A stretch of DNA of 41,474 nucleotides from Candidatus Amesbacteria bacterium. GTDB taxonomy: Bacteria; Patescibacteriota; Microgenomatia; CAZETR01; Amesbacteraceae. A model generated the notes under the pieces. The model did not search any database, was not told the origin of the DNA, and worked only from the letters and a program-made list of their open reading frames with translations. A program made the position numbers and the translations under genes. The stretch lies in NCBI GenBank assembly GCA_016219445.1, contig JACRNA010000022.1:1-41474 (forward strand), read 5' to 3'. The number at the start of each line of letters is the position of its first letter. Within the stretch, counting starts at the first letter, position 1. Of the stretch, positions 2,488 through 41,398 are shown in pieces.

Positions 2488-4229
2488 AAAGTATTATTCC
2501 TTTAATCTTGATTAATATTTCAATATTTTTGAGTTTATTGATTTATACAAAACCAACATTGGCTTCTGAGGAAGGCGGAGTGGGATACAGTTGTTATGAC
2601 GCCTGTTCGTGTTGGGGAGATTGTGGTTACGCCCCAGATCCTTACGAAGTAGACAATAGTCCAGTTTCCAATTCTGGTTATAGCGGTGGTTGGCCGGATG
2701 ATCCTCCGCGGCCACAGCCAGATCCACCATCACCTCCAGCGCCTTCTTGTGACAATTGGTGTAATTGTAATTATTGTGAACCGTCACCACCCTGTAATGA
2801 TACTTGCGGAGGATGTGGAGGGGGTTATGTCAATGATTGTGGTAATTATTGTAGTCAACCTTCGTGTTATGTCCCACCCCTACCTTGTGACAATAGTTGT
2901 GATGGAGGTTGTGGAGATAATTATACAAATGCTTGTGGAACTGTGTGTACCCGCACAAAGTGTTATGTACCGAAATGTGGTGAGACGGGCAATATAGCAT
3001 GTATAAACAAGTCAACGGGCAAATGTGAGGATAGTGGTTTTCGAGACAAAAATTCATGTAATGAAGGCACGGAAATCCCCATGCAAGCAACACCCGGGTG
3101 CCATAAAATAGGCTCTTGTCGTCCTAGTGAACCCGGGAAATGCGCTCAAAACTGTACTTCGGATGATGGGATAATCAATCGATGGGATTATTGTGATTGT
3201 GGCGGATCGCCAGTGGTTGTTCCACAGCCTCCGCCAGCTGAAACATGCCCCACTTATTGTGGATATCCCGGAGGTAGTGTAGCTGACGGAAACTGGGGAC
3301 GCAAGAATTGTGGTGCAATAGCGGGGTGTCCATTGGGTGGTGGAAACGGAAATAACAATTCATTTGTGCCAAGTAACGCTGGGGCTAATCCACCAGCTCC
3401 ACTCGGTGGTTGTATCGGAGCATCTTGTCTCTTGGGTAATTATTTTCAATCAAAAGGTGGAAGTATTATGACTTTGGGTGGTGCGGTATCCAATCCTAAA
3501 CTTCCTTCAGGAAAGGTGTTTTCCAAGGATGGAGAAGGTGGGTCTCCGGGAATCCCCATGGGGAACGGAGCGTCTAGTTTTGGGGCCGGAAGCGTTTCGA
3601 GTACGGGTTGGATAGCAGGCGATGCCAATAATTATCAGGGTGTCATCTCGGACAAAGTTCAATACCGCTATGACATAGATCAAATCAAAGGAAAGATAAT
3701 ATCATTGGTAAAGCCTGAACAGTTAATATTCTCCAATATCTATAATCCAGATGATTTATTAAAGGGTACACCAGAGCCAGACGGTACGTATTATGTCCAG
3801 ACCAACGATGATCTGGTCATATCTTCAAATCTCGATTTGGGAACTAGTAGAGTAGTAGTTATTACCGAGAAAAACGCCAAAATAGATGGATCTATCAAAT
3901 TTGATGAAGGTGGATTGTTTGCGGTCATTGCCCGGGAAAATATCGAAATAAATCCAAATGTCGGTGGAAGTTCTACCGGAGTTGATCCAGACGGAGTTCA
4001 ACCAAACATTGAAGGGGTATTCTTTGCTCAAAAAAGATTTAAGACTGGAACTGGAAACAAACAATTGAGAATTGATGGACCAGTAGTAGGTATAGAGGGA
4101 GTGGATCTAGAAAGAACACATACTTCCCAATACCCTGCCGAGTATTTTGTCTTTAGGCCGGATATACTTATGACATTACCCCAGCATTTACTTCGTAGAA
4201 ATAACTTATGGAAAGAGGCTTTACCTTAA
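2484..4229 (+). CDS. Secreted Cys-rich / Pro-rich protein with a repetitive C-terminal half; candidate pilus-associated adhesin
   Basis: Signal-like N-terminus ending TLA-SEE. I count about 36 Cys between residues ~36 and ~315. Two tandem 31-aa units are PCNDTCGGCGGGYVNDCGNYCSQPSCYVPPL and PCDNSCDGGCGDNYTNACGTVCTRTKCYVPK (nt 2790-2975). There are PPRPQPDPPSPPAP and PQPPPAE linkers. The C-terminal part is rich in short beta-strand-like repeats. Confidence 0.6.
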   Translation: MKSIIPLILINISIFLSLLIYTKPTLASEEGGVGYSCYDACSCWGDCGYAPDPYEVDNSPVSNSGYSGGWPDDPPRPQPDPPSPPAPSCDNWCNCNYCEPSPPCNDTCGGCGGGYVNDCGNYCSQPSCYVPPLPCDNSCDGGCGDNYTNACGTVCTRTKCYVPKCGETGNIACINKSTGKCEDSGFRDKNSCNEGTEIPMQATPGCHKIGSCRPSEPGKCAQNCTSDDGIINRWDYCDCGGSPVVVPQPPPAETCPTYCGYPGGSVADGNWGRKNCGAIAGCPLGGGNGNNNSFVPSNAGANPPAPLGGCIGASCLLGNYFQSKGGSIMTLGGAVSNPKLPSGKVFSKDGEGGSPGIPMGNGASSFGAGSVSSTGWIAGDANNYQGVISDKVQYRYDIDQIKGKIISLVKPEQLIFSNIYNPDDLLKGTPEPDGTYYVQTNDDLVISSNLDLGTSRVVVITEKNAKIDGSIKFDEGGLFAVIARENIEINPNVGGSSTGVDPDGVQPNIEGVFFAQKRFKTGTGNKQLRIDGPVVGIEGVDLERTHTSQYPAEYFVFRPDILMTLPQHLLRRNNLWKEALP

Positions 4230-4252
4230 TATGGGTATTTGTTACACATTGA
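4208..4252 (+). pseudogene. Orphan prepilin leader stub (MERGFTLIWVFVTH-stop)
   Basis: ATG-GAA-AGA-GGC-TTT-ACC-TTA-AT reproduces the M-x-R-G-F-T-L-I prepilin leader of the pilin gene at 5859, then stops after 14 codons. It overlaps the end of the 581-aa ORF. Confidence 0.5.
4214..4230. repeat. 17-bp direct repeat, copy 1 (AGAGGCTTTACCTTAAT)
   Basis: Identical to 5865-5881. The two copies bracket the AsnB-like gene. Confidence 0.9.
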
Positions 4253-4275
4253 TAGTTTATTAGTTTTAAATTACC

Positions 4276-5862
4276 GTGAAACATTTAATCTTAGATATTA
4301 AATCTGAGAAGGGGTTTGTCTTAGATGAAGTGTGGGAGTATTTATTGTTACCCGACTCAGAAGGGGTTGTTAAAAAAATCAATTCCGATTGGAAGGGTTA
4401 TTTGGTCAACTATGACCAAATTACTTTTGACGATTTGGTAAAGGCATGTAAGCATTTTGATACCAATACTCTACAAGGTTTGAATAGTGATTATTTATTA
4501 ATGGGTTTAAACAATTCAAAATCAGAATTAAACATAATAAGTGGAGTCTCGGGAAAGTTTCCTCTGTATTTTTCTCCGTATAAAGACGGATTTGTCGCGT
4601 CGACTGATATTTCAGAAATTATACGAAGAAAAACTAACAAAAAAATAAATATAAATTCGGCATTAGATTATTTGTATACAGATTATTTTATGTATACTAC
4701 CCATGAAACTTTTATTGAGGGAGTATACAAATTACCTGTAGGTCATAGATTACGTATTGATCGTAATTATAAATTTAAAATTGAACCAATTTTTAATTTG
4801 GATAAATTTTTAAGAAATCAACAGGAACCATTTTCTGTGGAAAAATTTCAAGAGAAATTTTTAGATCGTATGGTTAATGTGGTGCGGGAAAGAACTATCA
4901 GATTTCCCAATACCCCCATTGGATGTGAACTTTCATCAGGATTTGACAGTTCATTAATAGCCTATGCTCTTAAAAAAGCCGGGATATCTCAAAACTGTAC
5001 TTTTTTCTCAGATTATAGTAAATATGATACTGGTGATACTGATAAAAGTATCGTCGAGAAGTTTGCTATAAAGCATAATCTAAAATTATCTTTTTTAGAT
5101 ATTTCTGATTTAACTACTTTTTCGGATATTGACACGGGTTGGTCAAAAAAGTATTTTTTTCCAGGCACTCATGCCTTGCTAGGAGAAATCATAACCGCCG
5201 AAAATAGAAGAAAAATATATAGTCAACCTAATCTTTTATTTCGTGGATTTGGCGCAGACGAATTATTTATGTCATATTTGATTCACCACAATGTTGATAA
5301 AATGATCAAGGATGAGCTTGAATGGGCAAAATTTGGAATAGAGCAAGGAATAGGTAAAATATTTACCAATAAGGGATTGGAAATATTAAAAAGTAGGGAT
5401 AGAATGTTTCAAACACCTGTTTATTTTTCAATTTTCTCACCAAGTAGTGTAGAATGGGCTATATTTTCTATTTATTGGGAATATGGTGAATGGAGTGTTT
5501 TGCCATTTAATGACCTAGAATTATTAGAGATAGCCCGCAGGATTCCAAGAAAAAACGGAAAACCATTAAAAAAGCAAGAAATTTGGGCCGGGAGAACTGA
5601 TATATTTTTGCCCGAACAATATAAACAAAAGTTACCCTTTGATAACCATGTCTTGCAGATATTTGAAAAGCGGAAGGGATTTCTAGTAAAAATATTGTCT
5701 AATTCTGTTCTAGGGAAAGCAGGTTTAATTAATTCTAGTGAGATGAGAGAGGCAGTTGCTACAGATAAAGCTAAGGATTTATATAAAAACATGTTGCCTG
5801 TATTTATAAATGTAATATGGTTAGAGAATTATCTACAGGCAAATGATATTATTAAATTGTGA
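4276..5862 (+). CDS. Asparagine synthetase B-like protein (PP-loop ATP pyrophosphatase) without the N-terminal Cys nucleophile
   Basis: SGVSGKFPLYFSPYKDGFVASTDISEI resembles the AsnB N-domain (RD..G..PLYY...FASE). TFIEGVYKLPVGHRL matches the AsnB hinge. CELSSGFDSSLIAY is the SGGxDS-type PP-loop. The protein starts MKHLIL rather than MCG, so glutaminase activity is unlikely. The start codon is GTG. Confidence 0.7.
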   Translation: MKHLILDIKSEKGFVLDEVWEYLLLPDSEGVVKKINSDWKGYLVNYDQITFDDLVKACKHFDTNTLQGLNSDYLLMGLNNSKSELNIISGVSGKFPLYFSPYKDGFVASTDISEIIRRKTNKKININSALDYLYTDYFMYTTHETFIEGVYKLPVGHRLRIDRNYKFKIEPIFNLDKFLRNQQEPFSVEKFQEKFLDRMVNVVRERTIRFPNTPIGCELSSGFDSSLIAYALKKAGISQNCTFFSDYSKYDTGDTDKSIVEKFAIKHNLKLSFLDISDLTTFSDIDTGWSKKYFFPGTHALLGEIITAENRRKIYSQPNLLFRGFGADELFMSYLIHHNVDKMIKDELEWAKFGIEQGIGKIFTNKGLEILKSRDRMFQTPVYFSIFSPSSVEWAIFSIYWEYGEWSVLPFNDLELLEIARRIPRKNGKPLKKQEIWAGRTDIFLPEQYKQKLPFDNHVLQIFEKRKGFLVKILSNSVLGKAGLINSSEMREAVATDKAKDLYKNMLPVFINVIWLENYLQANDIIKL

Positions 5863-29138: not shown

Positions 29139-29223
29139 GTGGACTCTTTTTGAAAAAATCCGAACTTCCTTTCGCGAAAACCGCTAAACTGTCAGCTCGT
29201 CCCGCTTCGCGGGACTCGCTTTT
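29139..29223. repeat. IR-A, left copy (85 bp)
   Basis: Its reverse complement equals 33751-33835 with one mismatch (29181 C versus the complement of 33793 A). Similarity continues imperfectly with an indel to ~29273 / ~33719. Confidence 0.9.
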
Positions 29224-29820
29224 ATCCTTGCGCTCGCGGAGCTTATCCCGCTATGCGGGGCTCGCGCTTTCGATTATTTAAGAATGTTTTCGGCGCGCGC
29301 GTTCTCGCCAGCGGGCGAGTAAGGAAGGATTTATAGTTTTCCTTGGCCCACCCTTCCCGTCCGCGGAAAACGATTTTCTCCCCTGTATTGTAGCTGAAAA
29401 GACAAGAGAAATACAGGCTGTCTTGACTTCACACTATCCCACCCTCCCAGAATAAATTGATGGCGGCGACCCCATCCTCGTTCGCAGGGCGCCCTAGGGG
29501 GCGCCTCGCCAGTGTCTTTGCCTTCTAACTTCTCATACAATCTCTTCCGAAGTAAGAGAATTTCTTGTAAGTCAGCTCACTGCGGTGGGGTATCCGCTTT
29601 TTCGCCCCCGCCTTCTTTATTCTACCCCTGTCCAGTGTCCGTACCATTGGCGGGTAATTCGGATGGCTCGCCCTGCATTTCCTTCTATCCAAAGCATTTC
29701 CAGCAGGGCTCGCGTGGGTCGGGCGCACTCGTAAATGTTCCAAATAATACGTTAGAATTTCTGTCGTGCGCCCTCCTTTTCAGCAGGTACTCTCCGATGG
29801 GGCGGGGGCGGCGGAGCCGC
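29224..29820 (-). ncRNA. Candidate large structured RNA (GC-rich, hairpin-dense, class unknown; the strand is my best guess)
   Basis: No credible ORF. One 60-nt line (29461-29520) is 43/60 G+C by my count in an otherwise AT-rich genome. Nested helices, written as minus-strand RNA, include GGGCGCAC/GTGCGCCC, GCCCTGC/GCAGGGC, CCCGCC/GGCGGG, GGCGA[GGCGCCC-CCTA-GGGCGCC]...TCGCC, CTGTATT/AATACAG and GGAAAA-CGA-TTTTCC. On the minus strand a C(UUCG)G tetraloop hairpin is TCTCTT-A-C-TTCG-G-AAGAGA. The block starts 7 nt after the SEC-C stop. Confidence 0.45.
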
Positions 29821-29827
29821 CAATAAT

Positions 29828-31273
29828 CTATTTGAATACTTTATGCTTTTTCTCCAGCTCCAGAAAGATAGCTAATGGAACATTTGCCGTAAAGTTTTTT
29901 CTGTCGGTGCGAGCCTCTAATAGCTTACCAACCGCTGTGATACAAAAACCAAGGGCAGGTATTTGCCAATTCATTCCGCCTGATAAAATTGCTGCGATGC
30001 CCCCTGATCCTGTAACCCATTTTAGAAGTTCCTTATCAATTTTTGTCCATTCTTCTTTTGTTTTTCCATATTCTTCCTGTAATTCCTCAGATAACCGTCT
30101 TGCCAACTTTTCCGCCTCTTCGTATGATGGGTTTCCTTCAATACCGACCCATACCTTACGTAGGAACTGCCTAAATCCTTCCAGTCTGCCTTCTTCCTTT
30201 AACCTAAAAGCAAATTTAGGATCGATGTTGTTGAGAAAATTGAACTCTAGACTTTGGAAAGATTTTGTAAGAGGGCTCCAAACTTCACCTTCAGAAGATT
30301 GGGCCTGTTTTGTTGATAGAATTTCCCGCCATTGCTCCCGTCGGTCAGTATACAGATAGGACCCTGTCAATTGTCCGATGTACAAAGCAAGCTCTAGGTT
30401 TGCACCGTTCCTCATTACGTGGAGCTCCCCACCATCCGGTAGTTCCTGATCCAATATCATTGGGTCTTCTTTCCTCATTTTTTGTACGTATTGGACCATT
30501 TCGGCCATTCCTTTATTATCCATTGTGGGGATAGCGTTCTTGATGCTAATTGCGAGTTTATCTTTGGGTAACCGATACATAGTTTTGGCAAGCATTGCTA
30601 TACCTCTTGGTTTTATTTCGGCGATTGTTTCTTTTGTAAGTTCAAGTTTCTGATCTTTCCACCTTTTTTCAGCCATCTGCCATACTTCCTTCCTAAGTGA
30701 GTAATCGAAGTCGCAAGGGTTGGGAATAAGGTTGACTAGGCCAGCTCCAATCCAAGGCGCTAACCGGAAAATAAAGGCAATCATCTCTAGGGTATCTTGT
30801 TTATATAATTCAGGGTGAACGATTGGGTTAAAATCTGTAGCTATAGTACGAGGGTTCATAAAAGGACTAACTACTAAAACTTCATCCGTATAGAGGCTAT
30901 ACCTTACTATGTTTTGCAATATCGCGTTTAAATCAGGTTTGGTTTCACCCATATAAAAGCCTCTGAGATTTTTACTCGGTTTGGGTAGTAATGAAATAAT
31001 GTCCGTATCTGTTGGCCACAGCCAAGAAACGACTCTATAAAGCTCTCTTACTTGATCATTGGACATCTCTCGTCTGAAGTCATTCCAAGTTATGCCTCTA
31101 TTGAAGCCAAAAATATCAACGATCGCATTTAGAAGTACAACGTTTCTCTCCTTTATACTTCTTTGGTGAAAAGGATTGGATTGAGGTGTCACAGCAAGAT
31201 GCTTATTGAGATGACACTTTTTATATTTCCTCCCGCTACCACAAGGACATAGATCATTTCTACCGATTTTCAT
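29828..31273 (-). CDS. SEC-C metal-binding-motif protein of unknown function (481 aa)
   Basis: N-terminal GRNDLCPCGSGRKYKKCH is a SEC-C Zn motif. I do not recognise the remainder. The C-terminus has a Gly-rich hydrophobic stretch, GSGGIAAILSGGMNWQIPALGFCITAVGKLL. Confidence 0.7.
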   Translation of the reverse strand: MKIGRNDLCPCGSGRKYKKCHLNKHLAVTPQSNPFHQRSIKERNVVLLNAIVDIFGFNRGITWNDFRREMSNDQVRELYRVVSWLWPTDTDIISLLPKPSKNLRGFYMGETKPDLNAILQNIVRYSLYTDEVLVVSPFMNPRTIATDFNPIVHPELYKQDTLEMIAFIFRLAPWIGAGLVNLIPNPCDFDYSLRKEVWQMAEKRWKDQKLELTKETIAEIKPRGIAMLAKTMYRLPKDKLAISIKNAIPTMDNKGMAEMVQYVQKMRKEDPMILDQELPDGGELHVMRNGANLELALYIGQLTGSYLYTDRREQWREILSTKQAQSSEGEVWSPLTKSFQSLEFNFLNNIDPKFAFRLKEEGRLEGFRQFLRKVWVGIEGNPSYEEAEKLARRLSEELQEEYGKTKEEWTKIDKELLKWVTGSGGIAAILSGGMNWQIPALGFCITAVGKLLEARTDRKNFTANVPLAIFLELEKKHKVFK

Positions 31274-31282
31274 AATTGCTTC

Positions 31283-31340
31283 TTGACTTTCGATTTATTT
31301 TCTAACTATACTAGTATATAGAAAGAAATTAGAATGTCAA
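31283..31340. promoter_or_regulatory. Divergent overlapping promoters sharing a 12-bp perfect palindrome TATACTAGTATA (31307-31318)
   Basis: The plus strand has TTGACT (31283-31288)-N18-TATACT (31307-31312). The minus strand has TTGACA (31340-31335)-N16-TATACT (31318-31313). The two -10 boxes are the two halves of the palindrome, which is a likely operator for the adjacent wHTH protein. Confidence 0.55.
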
Positions 31341-31341
31341 T

Positions 31342-32763
31342 ATGATAACAAAGCGCCAGAAGCAGGTACTAGAGTTTATAAAAATATTTCGAGACAAGAA
31401 GGGCTATGCTCCGTCTTTGGAAGAAATAAAGCACCATTTTGGCCTAGCTTCGGTATCCACTGCTCATTATCACGTTAAGTCCCTCGAGAAAATGAGTTAT
31501 CTTAAAAAGCAGGAAAATTTACCGAGAAGCATTGATGTATTTGAAACACGGCCCATGGTTCAAATCCCTATTTTAGGTCGTATTTCTGCCGGGCAACCAA
31601 TAGAGGCAATTCAAGATAAAGAAATTATTGCGGTTCAACAAAACCTAATCCTTTCTTCCTCAGAAGTTTATGCTCTTCGTGTAGTTGGTAACAGTATGAT
31701 TGAAGAAAATATAAATGATGGTGATGTTATTTTAGTCCGCAAACAGGAAACCGCAGAAAACGGACAGAAAGTGGTCGCACTTATAGATAATCACGAAGCA
31801 ACTTTGAAGAAATTCTATAGAGAGAAGGGGCATATCCGATTGCAACCAGCTAATAAGGCTATGGAGCCACTTATATTTAGAAATGGACATGATATTTCTA
31901 TTCAAGGTGTTGTTTTGGATGTCATCCGAGAAGGGCTGTCGCCAACCGTTGTTTCCACAGAAATTGAAGCTAAACCTAGTGAATATAGGGAACTTCCCTT
32001 GAACGAAATTATCTGCGGAGACGCAGTTGACGTAATGAAGGCAATGCCTCCGGACTCGATTGATCTGGTGGTAACCTCCCCTCCATACGATGAATTAAGA
32101 AATTATAATGGTTATCGGTTCAATTTTGAGGGAATAGCCAAGGGACTATTCAGAGTTGTCAAAAAAGGCGGTGTCTTAGTGTGGGTAGTCGGAGACAAAA
32201 TAAATAAAGGGGATAGAAGTCTTACAAGCTTCAGACAAGCCCTGTTCTTTCAGAGTGTAGGTTTCAACGCCCATGATGTCATGATTTATAGGAAAAAGAA
32301 CACTCCTTTTATGAGATCTAATGCCTACACAAATTGCTATGAGTTTATGTTCGTTTTCAGTAAAGGTTCTCCCAAAACATTTAATCCCTTAAAAACCAAA
32401 ACCATCCGACAGGGTCAAGAAATGCTTCCGTTCAATAAAAAGGCAGATGGAATAAATAAAAAAACAAAAGGTGAGCTAAAACCAGAAAAAACCTTAACGA
32501 ATATCTGGGATTATGCCGTAGGGTTTGGTGGCTCGACTAGCGATAAAATTGCATTTCAACATACTGCTATATTCCCAGAAAAATTAGCAGAGGACCATGT
32601 TCTTTCATGGACAAAAACAGGAGATGTTGTTTTTGATCCAATGTGCGGTTCTGGAACGACTTGCAAAATGGCCGCTATAAATAAACGCTACTATATTGGA
32701 TGCGATATATCTAAAGAATATGTTGAACTTACGAAGAAAAGGCTAAAATACTTCAATCTCTAG
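31342..32763 (+). CDS. Fusion: complete LexA-type repressor (wHTH + S24 autopeptidase) + beta-class N4/N6 DNA methyltransferase
   Basis: Residues 1-~205: LexA wHTH (RQKQVLEFI...SLEEIKHHFGLASVSTAHYHVKSLEKMSYL), cleavage-site-like ISAGQPI, and the Ser/Lys dyad GNSM ... ATLKKF. Residues ~225-473: motif IV DLVVTSPPY comes before motif I FDPMCGSGTTCKMA, the beta-class order. SPPY is more typical of N4-cytosine enzymes. Confidence 0.8.
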   Translation: MITKRQKQVLEFIKIFRDKKGYAPSLEEIKHHFGLASVSTAHYHVKSLEKMSYLKKQENLPRSIDVFETRPMVQIPILGRISAGQPIEAIQDKEIIAVQQNLILSSSEVYALRVVGNSMIEENINDGDVILVRKQETAENGQKVVALIDNHEATLKKFYREKGHIRLQPANKAMEPLIFRNGHDISIQGVVLDVIREGLSPTVVSTEIEAKPSEYRELPLNEIICGDAVDVMKAMPPDSIDLVVTSPPYDELRNYNGYRFNFEGIAKGLFRVVKKGGVLVWVVGDKINKGDRSLTSFRQALFFQSVGFNAHDVMIYRKKNTPFMRSNAYTNCYEFMFVFSKGSPKTFNPLKTKTIRQGQEMLPFNKKADGINKKTKGELKPEKTLTNIWDYAVGFGGSTSDKIAFQHTAIFPEKLAEDHVLSWTKTGDVVFDPMCGSGTTCKMAAINKRYYIGCDISKEYVELTKKRLKYFNL

Positions 32764-33344
32764 TAGTTTTTCTTTAGAAACTCCATAGCACTTTTTAGCA
32801 ATTCAACATCGTCCTTGAAACGCCCTAGACCAGTATTACAACTATCGCATATCCAGCCACCTGGTCTGCCTGTACGATGATCGTGTTCTAGAACAACTTT
32901 GCTGGTTATGCCAGCAATTGTTCTTTTTTTACAAACTGGACATTCAAAAGGTTCGTTGTTTGGTTTCTTTTTAAGCCATTCTATTCTATCGGTTCGAGAT
33001 ACGCCGACACCTTCCATTTTTACACGACAATCTTTACAAGAGGGCCGCCTTACTGACCTATTATTTTTTGCGTTCTGATTTTTGGCAAAATCCGTTGTCT
33101 TTTTTAGTTTATGACAAACATTACAAATTTTTTTAGAAAATCCGTCTCCCGTTTTTCTCACATCTATAATATCGATACCATTTTTACCTAAATCAACTTG
33201 CTTCCAAATCCTTATAAAAAATATCGAAGCATTATTTTTTGCTTCTGACTTTATAACGCCAACATCACCTTTTTCAACTACAATCTCTCCGGGAGCTACA
33301 ATGCCCTTCTTTGCTACGACAAATTTATGTGGTGAATTAGTCAT
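32760..33344 (-). CDS. His-Me finger (Endonuclease VII / HNH-type) nuclease, probable restriction endonuclease
   Basis: LEHDHRTGRPGGWICDSCNTGLGRF matches the Endonuclease VII-family motif DH.H.TG..RG.LC..CN..LG. Additional CxxC pairs are CNVCH, CKDC and CPVCK. It is convergent and overlapping with the methyltransferase gene, and preceded by an HTH gene. Confidence 0.7.
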   Translation of the reverse strand: MTNSPHKFVVAKKGIVAPGEIVVEKGDVGVIKSEAKNNASIFFIRIWKQVDLGKNGIDIIDVRKTGDGFSKKICNVCHKLKKTTDFAKNQNAKNNRSVRRPSCKDCRVKMEGVGVSRTDRIEWLKKKPNNEPFECPVCKKRTIAGITSKVVLEHDHRTGRPGGWICDSCNTGLGRFKDDVELLKSAMEFLKKNY

Positions 33345-33562
33345 TTTAAAAAATAATCAACTGGCTTTTTATAAATTCGAGCAAATTCTTTCAGTGCAAC
33401 AATATCAATTCGCCTCTGTCCTGCTTCAACCTTTGAGACGTGAGATTGAGTCTTGCCGAGCATTTTTGCCACTTCTGCCTGATCTAAACCATTATCTTCT
33501 CGTGCTCTTTTGAGCTTTTCAATAAGGGCTTTGTGGTCTTTAGAAAAAATCGTTTTTGTCAT
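33341..33562 (-). CDS. XRE-family HTH protein (controller-protein-like)
   Basis: LDQAEVAKMLGKTQSHVSKVEAGQRRIDIVAL is a Cro/C1 HTH. ATGA overlap with the nuclease gene, the usual C-R operon layout. Confidence 0.8.
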   Translation of the reverse strand: MTKTIFSKDHKALIEKLKRAREDNGLDQAEVAKMLGKTQSHVSKVEAGQRRIDIVALKEFARIYKKPVDYFLK

Positions 33563-33569
33563 AAAGTAT

Positions 33570-33598
33570 TTGACTTATTCTATTTTATATTCCATAAT
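33570..33598 (+). promoter_or_regulatory. Promoter TTGACT-N17-CATAAT pointing into the recombinase leader
   Basis: -35 at 33570-33575 and -10 at 33593-33598. This would give a ~390-nt leader before the recombinase ATG at 33994. Confidence 0.45.
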
Positions 33599-33646
33599 GT
33601 AATATGCCAAATTGGAATAAACAAGGTAGACAAGAAGGCTCACTAA

Positions 33647-33666
33647 AAATTTTTGCGTTTTTCGGC
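33647..33666. repeat. 20-bp inverted repeat, left arm (AAATTTTTGCGTTTTTCGGC)
   Basis: Perfect reverse complement of 33955-33974. The pair brackets the hairpin-rich 33667-33954 block. Confidence 0.9.
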
Positions 33667-33750
33667 TGTCCCGATTACCATCGGGACAAAATTCGAACCG
33701 ACTTTTTGAGAAAAAGGTGCGAAAGCGCGAGCGAAGCGAGCGCAATGATA

Positions 33751-33835
33751 AAAAGCGAGTCCCGCGAAGCGGGACGAGCTGACAGTTTAGCGATTTTCGC
33801 GAAAGGAAGTTCGGATTTTTTCAAAAAGAGTCCAC
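33751..33835. repeat. IR-A, right copy (85 bp)
   Basis: Reverse complement of 29139-29223 with one mismatch. It contains the hairpin AGC-GA-GTCCCGC-GAA-GCGGGAC-GA-GCT. Confidence 0.9.
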
Positions 33836-33933
33836 CAAATTGGATTTTGTAGCGAGTCGGAGGCGGCTCCGCAGGAGCCGCCGAAGGAAAAGACCTCTGC
33901 GAAGCCCTTTTTGAACTGGCAAAAAAGCTGCCG
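33832..33933. repeat. IR-B, left copy (102 bp)
   Basis: Perfect reverse complement of 35401-35502, checked base by base. It contains the 9-bp hairpin GGCGGCTCC-GCA-GGAGCCGCC. Confidence 0.95.
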
Positions 33934-33954
33934 GAGAAAAAGGAAAACAAAGTG

Positions 33955-33974
33955 GCCGAAAAACGCAAAAATTT
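33955..33974. repeat. 20-bp inverted repeat, right arm
   Basis: GCCGAAAAACGCAAAAATTT is the reverse complement of 33647-33666. It ends 20 nt before the recombinase ATG. Confidence 0.9.
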
Positions 33975-33993
33975 AAGAAAGAAGTAACTGCCT

Positions 33994-35508
33994 ATGATTA
34001 AATACATTGCCTACTGCCGAAGATCAATCGAACAGGAAGAAAAACAGGCTTTATCTATCGAAGCGCAAATTGCCGAACTGAAAGAATTTGCGCTAAAAGA
34101 AAAACTTGATGTTGTGGAATTTTTAACCGAATCCAAGACCGCCAAAGTTCCCGGCCGCGAAGTTTTTGGCCAACTAATCAAGAAAATTCAGCAAGGCGAA
34201 GCTCAAGGAATTTTGGCATGGCACCCTGACAGACTGGCTAGGAATTCCGTTGATGGTGGCCAAATTATTTATCTTCTGGATACCGAAAAAATTCTTGACC
34301 TGAAATTTCCCACTTTCTGGTTTGACAGTACACCTCAAGGGAAATTCATGTTATCAATTGCTTTCTCTCAATCAAAATATTATGTGGACAATTTAAGTGA
34401 GAATGTAAAACGCGGTAATCGCCAAAAACTCCGTCGGGGTGTTTATCCCTCAAAAGCTCCAATTGGCTATTACAACGAACCGCGATTACGAACGATTGAA
34501 GTTGATCGACAAACAGCAACAATCGTTCAGAAAGCTTTTGAGATGTATGGGACCGGAAATTGCTCCATGGCTGATATTCAGCGATTTTTCTTTAAAAAAG
34601 GAGTCAGAAGAAAGAAAAATGACAAAATGTTGCCCATGAGCCAAGTTCAAAAACTTTTATCAAACACTTTTTACTATGGTTTGATGAAATATGCCGGCGA
34701 ATTTTATGAAGGGATCCATAAACCATTAATCTCCAAAGGTTTGTTCGACAAAGTTCAACAAGTTCAAAAACAGCGCGGAAAACCGAGAAAACAAGCCCAC
34801 AATTTTCCGTTTCTCGGCCTTGTTCGTTGTGGTGAATGTGGGGCTTCGGTGACTGCTGAAGAACACTTCAAGTTTTATCCTTCAACCAGAGGTAAAGTTG
34901 CGTATGTTTACTATCACTGCACAAAAAGGAAAATTCGCCAGCCCTGTTCACAGCGTTACCTCAATAGTGTCGAGTTTGAAAAACAGCTACGGGAACTTTT
35001 AGCAAAAATAAATCTCCCCAAAAGATGGGCTGAAAAGTGGCTGGAGAAACTGGATCAGGAACAAAAAACGGAAATTGGCAGAGTTGAGGAAAACACAACA
35101 GAAATTAACCAAAAAGTACAAACAGTCGACCAAAAATTAGGCCGCTTGTTAGACGTTTATCTAAATCAGGAAGTTGACCTGCTTTCCTATCAACAAAAGA
35201 AAAGTCAATTATTGGAAGAAAAAGTCGGACTGAAAGAAAAAATTGCAGAGACATTAAAAAACGGAAACGATTGGTTCGAACCAATGAGGGAATTTATAAA
35301 CGTGGCCGCCGAAGCGGCCAAAACCGCGCGCGCCGAAAACAATAACCAAGAATTAAAACTCTTGGTTCAAAAAGTCGGTTCGAACTACACTTTATTAAAT
35401 CGGCAGCTTTTTTGCCAGTTCAAAAAGGGCTTCGCAGAGGTCTTTTCCTTCGGCGGCTCCTGCGGAGCCGCCTCCGACTCGCTACAAAATCCAATTTGGT
35501 GGGCCTGA
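33994..35508 (+). CDS. Large serine recombinase (LSR1)
   Basis: Resolvase catalytic domain (IAYCRRSIEQEEKQ, WHPDRLARNSVDG), recombinase domain, zinc ribbon (RCGECGASVTAE...YYHCTKRK) and a coiled coil. The last ~35 codons lie in IR-B, and the TGA (35506-35508) lies inside tRNA-Leu. Confidence 0.9.
   Translation: MIKYIAYCRRSIEQEEKQALSIEAQIAELKEFALKEKLDVVEFLTESKTAKVPGREVFGQLIKKIQQGEAQGILAWHPDRLARNSVDGGQIIYLLDTEKILDLKFPTFWFDSTPQGKFMLSIAFSQSKYYVDNLSENVKRGNRQKLRRGVYPSKAPIGYYNEPRLRTIEVDRQTATIVQKAFEMYGTGNCSMADIQRFFFKKGVRRKKNDKMLPMSQVQKLLSNTFYYGLMKYAGEFYEGIHKPLISKGLFDKVQQVQKQRGKPRKQAHNFPFLGLVRCGECGASVTAEEHFKFYPSTRGKVAYVYYHCTKRKIRQPCSQRYLNSVEFEKQLRELLAKINLPKRWAEKWLEKLDQEQKTEIGRVEENTTEINQKVQTVDQKLGRLLDVYLNQEVDLLSYQQKKSQLLEEKVGLKEKIAETLKNGNDWFEPMREFINVAAEAAKTARAENNNQELKLLVQKVGSNYTLLNRQLFCQFKKGFAEVFSFGGSCGAASDSLQNPIWWA
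35401..35502. repeat. IR-B, right copy (102 bp)
   Basis: Perfect inverted copy of 33832-33933. It overlaps the recombinase 3' end and the last 6 nt (CCACCA on the tRNA strand) of tRNA-Leu(UAG). Confidence 0.95.
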
Positions 35509-35581
35509 GAGGACTCGAACCTCTACCCCTCGCGGGACAGGTTCCTAAAACCTGCGTGTATACCAATTTCACCACAAGCCC
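35497..35581 (-). tRNA. tRNA-Leu(UAG), type II; CCA present, with C75-A76 supplied by the element side of the junction
   Basis: Manual fold: acceptor GGGCTTG/CAGGCCC, D arm GTG-AAATTGGTATA-CAC, anticodon arm CAGGT-TTTAGGA-ACCTG, long variable arm CCC-GCGA-GGG, T arm AGAGG-TTCGAGT-CCTCT, discriminator A. Confidence 0.9.
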
Positions 35582-39223: not shown

Positions 39224-39903
39224 TTGATGTTATCCTGTATTTGGATGATAAGATTAGTCAGAGATCTTGAATTGTTTAAGAAAGTTGAAATAGCTAGGAA
39301 GCTTGGGAGAAGTTACTCAGATTTAAACAAAGAGTTCAAAGTTTCTAAAAGTGCTTTAAGTTCTTGGTTTTCAAGTTCTAAGTGGTCGAGTGACATTAAA
39401 ACGTCTTTTGTCATTAGAAATAATGAGCATAATAAAGACAGATTGATGGCAATGAATAAAGCAAAAGCTAAGTATAAACTTGCAAGGTATACTAAATACC
39501 AAATCCCCTGTTTTTTACTGGTGTCTCACTATATTGGGGCGAGGGTGAAAAGGCAAACAAAAGCAGAGTTTCCATAATTAATTCCGACGCCAATCTTCTA
39601 AAAGTTGAAATCAGTTTTTTTAGAAATATTATGTTGATTCCTGAAGAAAAGTTAAGAGCAGCTATTTTTATCTATAGTGATATTGATGCAAACAAGGCTC
39701 TAGAGTACTGGTCAGATCAAATTAAGTTATCAAAGAAACAATTTATAAAAACTCAGATTTTACCCAGCCATAGTAAACTCACCCAAAGAAGAACTTTATA
39801 CGGTATGTGTAATGTCTATTTTTCAAGCACGGAATTTAATGTTAAAATGAGGGGGTGGATTGACTTATTGGCAAATGATTACGCGGCTATGGTTCATCGG
39901 TAG
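39224..39903 (+). pseudogene. HTH + LAGLIDADG-like ORF split by a frameshift near 39493-39520
   Basis: Frame A (39224-39577) gives an HTH, EIARKLGRSYSDLNKEFKVSKSALSSWF. Frame B is open from 39496 and reads IPNPLFFTGVSLYWGEGEKANKSRVSIINSD...MLIPEEK, continuing into ORF 39631-39903. The switch lies at a CCCCTGTTTTTT run. The last 21 nt overlap tRNA-Gly. Confidence 0.5.
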
Positions 39904-39953
39904 AACACGTTCTTGCCAAGAATGAGAGACGGGTTCGATTCCCGTTAGCCGCT
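39883..39953 (+). tRNA. tRNA-Gly(GCC), no encoded CCA
   Basis: Acceptor GCGGCTA/TAGCCGC, D arm GTTC-ATCGGTA-GAAC, anticodon arm CGTTC-TTGCCAA-GAATG, T arm ACGGG-TTCGATT-CCCGT, discriminator T. Confidence 0.9.
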
Positions 39954-41398
39954 CCCTCCCCTCGGGCTTTTTTGTCGGAAAGGATGAGGTTCGAGCCGAA
40001 GATTTTTTGGGCCAACACTTTTTTGGCTTCTAAGTCTTTACCCCTTGCGATATTAGCCGCGTCAGCGGCTTCAATTATCCACTCTCTCATGGGTTCGAGC
40101 CAAGCATGGTGCGTTTGCTCAAAGCGGAAGATTTGTTCTTCCAGCGTCTTCTTTTCTGATAACAATTCTGATTTCTTGTTGAGATACGAATCGCGGTCAA
40201 CATCCTGATCAAGATATGAGTAAAGAAGACGCTGAAGTCTGAACGTTTTTTCTTTGATCTCTTCCCGCTTGCTTTGAGTAAACGCACCGCAGGAATGGGC
40301 AAGTTCCGTTTTCTCTCCTTCCAGTTTGTCTAACATCTTTCTTGCCCAGTCCTGCCGCAAAGAAACTGACAAAATCATGTCTGATAATTGGCTGTCCAGC
40401 TCTTCCTGTCTGATGAATGGCTGTATGCATTTAATAGTCTTGGACTTTTTCGTGCACCGGTAATAGGTATAGGTGGCGTGATGATTGGTGTGTATATAAT
40501 ATTTCAATTTCTGTTCGGCGGTGATCATCATGTTGCACTCCCCGCAACGAAAAAGTCCTAAGAATGGTTTGAGAATACGGGGTTTTGACCAGGATTTTGA
40601 TCTTTTGTTTAAGACCAGCTGGACAGCCTCAAACAGTTTCTTTGCGATGATTGGCTCTTGAACCCCTTCGTGGATCTCGCCGAGGAAACGGAAATGGCCA
40701 TAATAAAAGGGGTTGGTAAGAATATGTTTGGTTACCTGATTAATCGGCCATGATTTACCGCCACTGGTAATAATGCCATTTCCCGCCAAAAAGTCTCTGA
40801 TATCCATGATCCGATAGGTTCCGGTAGCAAACATCTCAAAAGCCTGTTTAACAATAGGAGCTTTTTTGCGGTCAACGGCAATGGTTTTAGTCAGCGGATC
40901 GTTGAGATAGCCAACAGGCGCAAGTCCTGGCATTTCTCCTCTTCTGACTTTTTGGCGCAGACCTCTCTTGGTGTTTTCCGAAAGCGAGTCCACGAAGTAT
41001 TTACTCTGTCCAAAGGCGATTTGCAGCATAAATTTACCTTGGGGTGTGGCTTCAAACCAGAACTGGGGAAACTTCAGGGCTTTGATCTTATCCGTGTCGA
41101 CTAGATATATTAATTTTCCTCCGTCGACACTATTGCGCGCAAGTCTGTCCGGATGCCAGCTGACAATGCCGCTCGCTTCCTCTTTTTCAATCCGGTCGAT
41201 CATAGAGTTAAAAATGGGACGGCCTGGTATTTTGGCGGATTGTTTCTCGATAAGCTCCTCGACTACAAATAACTTTTCGCGAGCGGCATATTCCCGGAGT
41301 TCGGCAAGCTGAGCCTCAATAGACAAGATTTGCTTGTCTTCGACATCTGTTGATTTGCGCGCATACAAAAAGAATTTTGGGGTGTCCATGACTATCAA
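39887..41398 (-). CDS. Large serine recombinase (LSR2), paralogous to LSR1
   Basis: LYARKSTDVEDKQ, WHPDRLARNSVDG, zinc ribbon RCGECNMMITAE...YYRCTKKS, and a coiled coil. It aligns with LSR1 along most of its length. The last ~22 codons are antisense to tRNA-Gly(GCC), so the real C-terminus is uncertain. Confidence 0.85.
   Translation of the reverse strand: MIVMDTPKFFLYARKSTDVEDKQILSIEAQLAELREYAAREKLFVVEELIEKQSAKIPGRPIFNSMIDRIEKEEASGIVSWHPDRLARNSVDGGKLIYLVDTDKIKALKFPQFWFEATPQGKFMLQIAFGQSKYFVDSLSENTKRGLRQKVRRGEMPGLAPVGYLNDPLTKTIAVDRKKAPIVKQAFEMFATGTYRIMDIRDFLAGNGIITSGGKSWPINQVTKHILTNPFYYGHFRFLGEIHEGVQEPIIAKKLFEAVQLVLNKRSKSWSKPRILKPFLGLFRCGECNMMITAEQKLKYYIHTNHHATYTYYRCTKKSKTIKCIQPFIRQEELDSQLSDMILSVSLRQDWARKMLDKLEGEKTELAHSCGAFTQSKREEIKEKTFRLQRLLYSYLDQDVDRDSYLNKKSELLSEKKTLEEQIFRFEQTHHAWLEPMREWIIEAADAANIARGKDLEAKKVLAQKIFGSNLILSDKKARGEGAANGNRTRLSFLARTCSTDEP

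Follow-up and report, generated by a model that had tools for sequence, protein, structure and literature searches.

A LexA repressor fused to a DNA methyltransferase: a predicted self-cleaving control module of restriction-modification in Patescibacteria

Restriction-modification (R-M) systems have to keep the toxicity of a nuclease in balance with the protection given by a methyltransferase, and the known intrinsic R-M controls are C proteins, fusions of a helix-turn-helix (HTH) domain to the methyltransferase, antisense RNA and promoter methylation. Contig JACRNA010000022.1 of a Candidatus Amesbacteria bacterium, analysed here over its 41,474 nucleotides (nt; hereafter the window), encodes a methyltransferase that begins with LexA, which raises the question of what a repressor does at the front of a modification enzyme. 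The answer proposed here is that the protein is probably the methyltransferase of an Hpy99I-type type II R-M system with a complete LexA N-terminus, which would make it an SOS-cleavable repressor of its own gene and, at this locus, of a divergent SEC-C gene as well. The gene and its parts are as follows.

31342..32763, plus strand: LexA-methyltransferase fusion gene, a single uninterrupted open reading frame (ORF) of 473 aa
31345-31527, plus strand: winged HTH domain LexA_DNA_bind (PF01726), residues 2-62, Pfam E 6.7e-14
31567-31914, plus strand: Peptidase_S24 (PF00717), residues 76-191, Pfam E 3.1e-31
31588-31593, plus strand: codons of the Ala83-Gly84 scissile bond, in ISAGQPI (residues 81-87)
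31693-31695, plus strand: Ser118 codon, in GNSM (residues 116-119)
31807-31809, plus strand: Lys156 codon, in ATLKKF (residues 153-158)
31933-31980, plus strand: disordered linker, residues 198-213, AlphaFold predicted local distance difference test (pLDDT) below 50
32059-32739, plus strand: N6_N4_Mtase, residues 240-466, Pfam E 8.3e-43
Within it, plus strand: methyltransferase motif IV, SPPY (residues 246-249), and the S-adenosylmethionine-binding motif I, FDPMCGSGTT (residues 431-440)

The first-pass annotation, made from the letters alone, had described a 473-aa protein bearing every LexA hallmark with a beta-class methyltransferase behind it, and the description held in each part: Pfam, TIGR00498 and alignment to solved LexA structures agreed on the LexA, and the profile searches set the domain boundaries listed above. 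The N-terminal ~200 residues scored 183 bits with the NCBIfam equivalog model TIGR00498 (lexA; cut-off 111), covering model positions 4-201 of 203, and the nearest solved structure of this part was Thermotoga maritima LexA (3k2z, E 8.5e-35), with Escherichia coli LexA also matched. Ala83-Gly84 aligned with the scissile bond, and Ser118 and Lys156 with the catalytic dyad, when HMMER aligned the protein with the LexA structures of E. coli and T. maritima. An AlphaFold2 model built on a 60-sequence alignment returned both the LexA and the methyltransferase modules with confidence (pLDDT about 90 at residues 1-60), the linker of residues 198-213 lying between them. The order of the methyltransferase motifs, SPPY before FDPMCGSGTT, is that of the beta class; PADLOC matched this part as MTase_II and oMTase, and its closest solved relatives were the N4-cytosine enzymes 8s9n and PvuII. 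Because of SPPY and these relatives, N4-methylcytosine is suggested as the product. The fusion is a genuine single polypeptide with a LexA that is intact by profile alignment.

A search of 5.8 billion proteins yielded more than 115 full-length, collinear homologues on independent contigs, with the same three domains and 60-87% identity, which excludes a frameshift, chimera or assembly artefact that had made one gene of two. Homologues with a named source came from Patescibacteria/Parcubacteria or from unclassified 'bacterium' records, and several members are labelled 'transcriptional repressor LexA' by NCBI and JGI. Ala83, Gly84, Ser118 and Lys156 were invariant in 115 of 115 close homologues and in all 45 divergent representatives of 50% clusters, and the residues around the cleavage site and the dyad varied among the same sequences. 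The determinants of cleavage are evidently under strong selection, and because this selection spans very divergent fusions, self-cleavage would appear to be in use.

The fusion is not a one-off; the architecture had been understated in the first-pass annotation, being modular across all methyltransferase classes in Patescibacteria. With the LexA part alone as the query, 80 metagenome loci were fetched (related loci are numbered L below). All 98 scorable relatives of the LexA part, from GTDB genomes and metagenome loci together, lie at the start of an ORF that is 372-638 aa long or reaches the contig end, and their C-terminal parts sort into 15 classes, between which identity is below 45%. Across these classes, the LexA part is 56-88% identical to that of the window, whereas the C-terminal part is 21-37% identical or unrelated; each of the 15 class representatives comprises LexA, S24 and a DNA methyltransferase, and the representative with an MT-A70 enzyme carries a LexA part 88% identical to the window's. 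When 1.84 billion cluster representatives were searched exhaustively with HMMER, relatives at 50% identity or more were nearly all long fusions. Both LexA domains were present in 45 of 45 long representatives, with enzyme parts of the N6_N4_Mtase (31), Eco57I-type (7), D12/Dam (5), N6_Mtase (5) and C5 DNA_methylase (2) kinds. Most of the sampled classes have a convergent gene that reaches up to or across the stop codon of the fusion, and where recognisable this partner is a class-specific restriction enzyme (TaqI-, PabI- or BsaWI-like). An unfused relative (213 aa, 64% identity) heads an operon that also encodes a DpnI-like methyl-dependent nuclease (L161 1125-2551, L162 743-2169). The closest LexA proteins of about 200 aa, likewise unfused, are at most 48% identical, and the source-named ones belong to phyla other than Patescibacteria. 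By these comparisons, the LexA module is evidently a widespread, swappable control module in Patescibacteria.

In the window, the fusion gene is followed by two genes on the opposite strand.

32760..33344, minus strand: restriction endonuclease, R.Hpy99I homologue with Endonuclease_7 and His_Me_b4a2 domains (Pfam; PDB 3fc3 E 2.1e-44; PADLOC REase_II E 3.4e-45)
33341..33562, minus strand: XRE/HTH_3 controller (C-protein-like) gene, 73 aa (Pfam; weak PADLOC 'Control_protein' matches)
33582..33610, minus strand: promoter-like site of the controller-nuclease (C-R) operon, TTGGCA-17-TAAAAT (consensus scan only)

The R-M-like module that had been read here, with an XRE controller and an Endonuclease VII/HNH-type nuclease, was borne out by the Pfam domains of both proteins. 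The nuclease gene is convergent with the fusion gene, their stop codons overlapping by 4 nt, and its product aligns with R.Hpy99I over residues 8-192 of 194; the XRE/HTH_3 gene lies upstream of the nuclease gene and overlaps it, and has a homologue in many family loci. The fusion, the Hpy99I-like nuclease and the XRE controller evidently form a type II R-M unit, whose recognition sequence would be CGWCG by homology to Hpy99I alone. Within the methyltransferase class of the window, identity is usually 75-92% over the methyltransferase part, against 43-79% over the LexA part. The methyltransferase part on its own (residues ~215-470, 64-76% identity) occurs in GTDB genomes of Bacteroidota, Chloroflexota, Planctomycetota and Archaea. 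These LexA-free homologues are usually followed by the same nuclease, the pair being kept in Patescibacteria, Bacteroidota, Chloroflexota and Archaea. The pair appears to be a mobile type II system, and since it occurs without LexA in other phyla, LexA was apparently gained in Patescibacteria. At 32899-32917, inside the 3' part of the nuclease gene, a hairpin was also noted (TTGCTGG-TTA-TGCCAGCAA) that is bidirectional, each strand having T-runs; it sits 136 nt past the fusion stop and is a possible terminator of the convergent methyltransferase transcript.

The regulatory elements lie in the gap of 68 bp (31274-31341, by ORF coordinates) between the fusion gene and the divergent SEC-C gene.

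29828..31273, minus strand: divergent gene, 481 aa; SEC-C zinc motif at the N-terminus, remainder uncharacterised (Pfam)
31283..31312, plus strand: promoter of the fusion gene, -35 TTGACT (31283-31288), 18-nt spacer, -10 TATACT (31307-31312); scan, 10/12
31313..31340, minus strand: promoter facing the SEC-C gene, -35 TTGACA (31340-31335), 16-nt spacer, -10 TATACT (31318-31313); scan, 11/12
31288..31304, plus strand: predicted LexA operator, the conserved direct repeat TTTCGA (31288-31293) N5 TTTCTA (31299-31304), 11-bp period
31319..31335, minus strand: second, weaker predicted operator, ATTCTA N5 TTTCTA, with one mismatch to the strict pattern, in the spacer of the reverse promoter
31307..31318, no strand: perfect 12-bp palindrome TATACTAGTATA, formed by the two overlapping -10 hexamers

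The length of this gap, its two face-to-face promoters and its palindrome were all recovered as the first-pass annotation had given them. The palindrome occurs once in the window, against 0.06 matches expected by chance. An equivalent forward promoter was seen in homologous loci; among the upstream regions of 82 non-identical family members, which were compared for operators, 44 have a reverse-facing promoter and 28 look leaderless with a single promoter. A direct repeat of 11-bp period, NTTC[T/G]A-N5-NTTC[T/G]A or NTTCGG-N5-NTTCGG, lies between the -35-like and -10 hexamers in 80 of the 82. The copy at 31288-31304 overlaps the -35 hexamer and fills the spacer. It is the sole strict match in the window, with none before the C-R operon, and the pattern found one further match in 1.13 Mb (both strands) of related loci.

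The type of half-site tracks residue 43 of the recognition helix (S-T-A-H-x-H) without exception. The 13 regions that belong to proteins with Q or E at this position invariably contain TTCGG/TTCGG half-sites; of the 69 from proteins with F, Y or H, none contains TTCGG, 67 having half-sites of the TTC[T/G]A type and two lacking the repeat. The unfused protein of L161 (HQH) has GTTCGG-N5-GTTCGG in its promoter, along with the palindrome TATACTAGTATA and two TTATCCACA boxes. Since the two specificity types each occur with several methyltransferase classes, the promoter, operator and LexA appear to move together. A related canonical lexA-dinB operon (L165 2440-2500; LexA 47% identical) has GTTCAC-N5-TTTCAC in the same place between -35 and -10, again with a period of 11 bp, and LexA of Patescibacteria has been reported to recognise a direct repeat (PMC7739468). 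The conserved direct repeat is thus predicted, with strong comparative support, to be the LexA operator. An inverted second operator like that of the window is also present in L015, L155, L146, L085, L087/88 and L013. Each of the two predicted operators would occlude one promoter while sitting just downstream of the start site of the other.

A separate element was noticed in the same upstream regions. A perfect DnaA-box-like motif, [T/G]G[T/G]GGATAA (TGTGGATAAC; element TGTGGATAA), stands 9-25 nt upstream of the operator in 55 of the 82 members (for example, L001 at ~1750 and L094 at ~3940), against a background in loci L001-L160 of 0.017 per kb, ~350-fold lower. It is absent from 31274-31341 of the window. 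The motif may link methyltransferase expression to DnaA or replication, or it may mark the boundary of the cassette.

PADLOC matches to the SEC-C protein were confined to its 20-residue zinc motif and gave no assignment. Homologues of the protein lie directly downstream of an XRE repressor and Peptidase_M78 (ImmR/ImmA-like) pair, or of an XRE gene (L166-L169, ~2928-5452; L170, 3165-5434), in variable surroundings that resemble defence islands, and some are fused to DUF4238 (PF14022). It is plausible that the SEC-C gene is co-repressed cargo of the fusion protein. Downstream of it on the minus strand, a GC-rich (~49%), non-coding-looking stretch at 29270-29830 corresponds to what the first-pass annotation had called a structured RNA; its predicted fold of -199.9 kcal/mol has a z-score of only -2.8 against shuffles, and the stretch had no Rfam match even at E <= 1.

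The wider surroundings of the block are marked by repeats and a recombinase.

33994..35508, plus strand: large serine recombinase, its 3' end abutting tRNA-Leu(tag) (Pfam)
35497-35581, minus strand: tRNA-Leu(tag), adjoining the 3' end of the recombinase gene
29139..29223, no strand: left arm (A) of an 85-nt, 99% inverted repeat, partner at 33751-33835
33751..33933, no strand: internal composite repeat A'B', of which 33751-33835 pairs with A and 33832-33933 pairs (102 nt, 100%) with 35401-35502

The position of the recombinase beside tRNA-Leu marks the R-M module as part of a putative small integrative island. The A/A' repeat brackets the block of SEC-C, fusion, nuclease and C genes (4.5 kb). 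The layout reads A, 4.5-kb block, A'B', serine recombinase gene, B, with B (35401-35502) ending in the 3' end of tRNA-Leu, and the internal A'B' is the reverse complement of the junction expected for a circularised 29139-35502 element. Such nested repeats could come from an integrative island that inverts or has been rearranged, or from the assembly. Housekeeping genes (PBP1, PheRS, ThrRS, RecG and cyclophilin) occupy the flanks of the window. A second large serine recombinase (39887-41398, minus strand), 48% identical to that at 33994-35508, abuts tRNA-Gly (39883-39955), which suggests another integrative element at the end of the window.

The architecture, the catalytic residues, the conserved operator and its covariation with the recognition helix, the R-M context and the modularity are observed; from them we infer that the protein binds DNA, that it is cleaved in a RecA-dependent way, and in which direction the physiology would shift. 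The fusion protein would dimerise through its S24 domain and bind the direct repeat TTTCGA-N5-TTTCTA in its own promoter, holding its own synthesis at a low set level; repression of the divergent SEC-C gene would follow from the second, inverted repeat in the opposing promoter. RecA filaments on single-stranded DNA, arising from DNA damage, from breaks made by self-restriction or from incoming DNA, would trigger the self-cut at Ala83-Gly84, and cleavage would part the DNA-binding domain from the S24-methyltransferase body and derepress both promoters. The most likely pay-off is damage-triggered extra methylation, which would give a type II system its own means of restriction alleviation. A second pay-off may come in naive cells, where entry of the mobile cassette would set off a burst of methyltransferase.

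Several points weigh against this scenario. Binding and cleavage are deduced from conservation, and because the Q/E-type modules may form one clade, the covariation of helix and half-site possibly reflects few evolutionary events. Neither the window nor any of the fetched loci yielded recA or a second lexA, and RecA as co-protease is thus an assumption. CGWCG occurs 15 times in the window against 21.4 +/- 4.3 expected, a depletion that is not significant. Moreover, the plain HTH-methyltransferase fusions of the SsoII and EcoRII kind autoregulate without any cleavage (PMC3874152).

The last point bears on the alternative that the LexA part is a mere dimerising autorepressor, serving as a timing or dosage device for R-M establishment in the manner of the M.SsoII HTH or a C protein, with no link to SOS and no physiological use of self-cleavage. 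Autoregulatory methyltransferases work so (PMC3874152; see also PMC3978073 and PMC6100179), the predicted operator lies within the gene's own promoter, and the fetched DNA holds no recA. Yet the invariance of Ala-Gly, Ser and Lys in 115 plus 45 sequences whose neighbouring residues vary is hard to explain without selection for cleavage, and a purely autoregulatory role seems unlikely to us. A different use of cleavage, as a suicide or alarm switch, would have damage or phage remove or destabilise the methyltransferase or induce SEC-C, leaving the nuclease or the cargo to kill or arrest the cell as in abortive infection. This possibility is kept alive by the DpnI-type operon, where derepression of the unfused LexA would raise restriction and not protection, and by the SEC-C homologues behind XRE and M78 pairs, another type of damage-responsive regulator; the resemblance of the neighbourhoods to defence islands also fits it. 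However, derepression at the fusion promoter would yield more full-length methyltransferase, and the nuclease has its own C-protein promoter without an operator, which makes a switch of this kind quite improbable.

The two other alternatives concern where the protein binds and how widely. The first-pass annotation had one dimer at the 12-bp palindrome TATACTAGTATA repressing both promoters, and the palindrome is indeed perfect, unexpected by chance, spans both -10 boxes and recurs in L161. It is, however, exact in only one of the 82 fusion upstream regions, that of the window, and two overlapping TATACT boxes produce the same sequence; the direct repeat, in contrast, is conserved and follows the recognition helix, and relatives of this LexA use direct repeats. 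The palindrome was thus rejected as the main operator, and the one-dimer model is very improbable, while the dual control that it implied is still plausible through two direct-repeat sites, one per promoter. It is likewise very improbable that the fusion is the sole LexA and general SOS regulator of the organism with a methyltransferase attached. The database name of several members, the passing of the TIGR00498 cut-off and the non-Patescibacteria origin of the closest source-named unfused LexA proteins would fit such a role. However, the operator stands essentially at the fusion's own promoter alone, and the strict-pattern counts given above for the 41-kb window and the 1.13 Mb of sampled neighbourhoods revealed no multi-gene SOS regulon; the module belongs to a mobile island and has been exchanged between unrelated methyltransferases, and a canonical lexA-dinB operon with different half-sites exists. 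A global role in SOS regulation is accordingly judged unlikely, and the SOS-cleavable autorepressor remains our preferred reading.

If that reading is true, a cleavable LexA on a methyltransferase gives a direct DNA-damage input, such that breaks from under-methylation or repair synthesis would raise protection automatically. Patescibacteria, a very large group of bacteria, are for the most part uncultured and have few regulators, and a conserved, swapped module with its own operator points to a general regulatory strategy among them. We tentatively extend the proposal, as a possibility to which we would not yet commit ourselves, to a portable, self-cleaving LexA cassette that would be a third general R-M control in Patescibacteria beside C proteins and plain HTH-methyltransferases, bringing its own operator, grafted on every methyltransferase class and on at least one methyl-dependent nuclease operon, and linking the marking of DNA as self or non-self directly to the damage signal given by RecA, and perhaps to the initiation of replication as well. 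The family also offers a ready-made pair of repressor and operator that comes in two specificities (F/Y/H with TTC[T/G]A; Q/E with TTCGG) for the study of how LexA reads direct repeats, and the interest of the design lies in its being family-wide, modular and directly testable. For annotation, the consequence is that fusion proteins are named inconsistently in databases, as 'LexA' or as 'adenine methyltransferase'. The full-text literature searched, which excluded Sanchez-Osuna et al. 2017 on the SOS network of Patescibacteria, contained no description of natural LexA-methyltransferase fusions. The remark of the first-pass annotation that such coupling is not a standard R-M design agrees with its absence from the reviews of R-M regulation of 2013 (PMC3874152) and 2025, neither of which mentions it.

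Among known systems, the closest functional comparison is with the SsoII/EcoRII-type methyltransferases (PMC3874152, PMC3978073). M.SsoII/M.Ecl18kI, M.EcoRII and M.MspI likewise have a DNA-binding domain fused before the methyltransferase and an operator in the methyltransferase promoter region, with face-to-face promoters at which one bound protein can act both ways, and they control the dosage and timing of R-M. Their regulatory part, however, is a short XRE-type HTH on C5 methyltransferases, with no protease, whereas the present fusion has a full LexA (winged HTH and S24 with cleavage site) on an N6_N4 beta-class enzyme, a predicted direct-repeat mode of binding and a predicted DNA-damage input. 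The regulatory parts share no sequence homology, so the fusion is a functional analogue and not a member of that group. With LexA (TIGR00498) and LexA-like S24 repressors such as lambda CI and SetR, it shares the full domain set, the Ala-Gly bond, the Ser/Lys dyad and a predicted operator in its own promoter, this operator being a direct repeat as reported for LexA of Patescibacteria. It differs from them in being covalently joined to an enzyme and in appearing to control its own locus alone and not a repair regulon, and from the canonical lexA-dinB operon in its half-site, TTC[T/G]A or TTCGG in place of the TTCAC repeat.

The Hpy99I R-M system is matched in the homologous nuclease, and the convergent methyltransferase-nuclease pair is typical of type II, but here the beta-class SPPY methyltransferase carries LexA and an extra C-protein gene is present. 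C proteins are small HTH regulators that determine in what order and how strongly methyltransferase and nuclease are expressed, as the one encoded here (33341-33562) may do; they are separate small XRE proteins acting at the C-R promoter, in contrast to the LexA module, which is fused, placed at the methyltransferase promoter and predicted to be cleavable. The proposed outcome, a shift by damage of the balance from restriction to protection, resembles the ClpXP-dependent alleviation of type I restriction. There, a host protease degrades the restriction subunit, whereas here a type II system would achieve the effect by itself, at the level of transcription, through the predicted self-cleavage of the repressor domain on its own methyltransferase.

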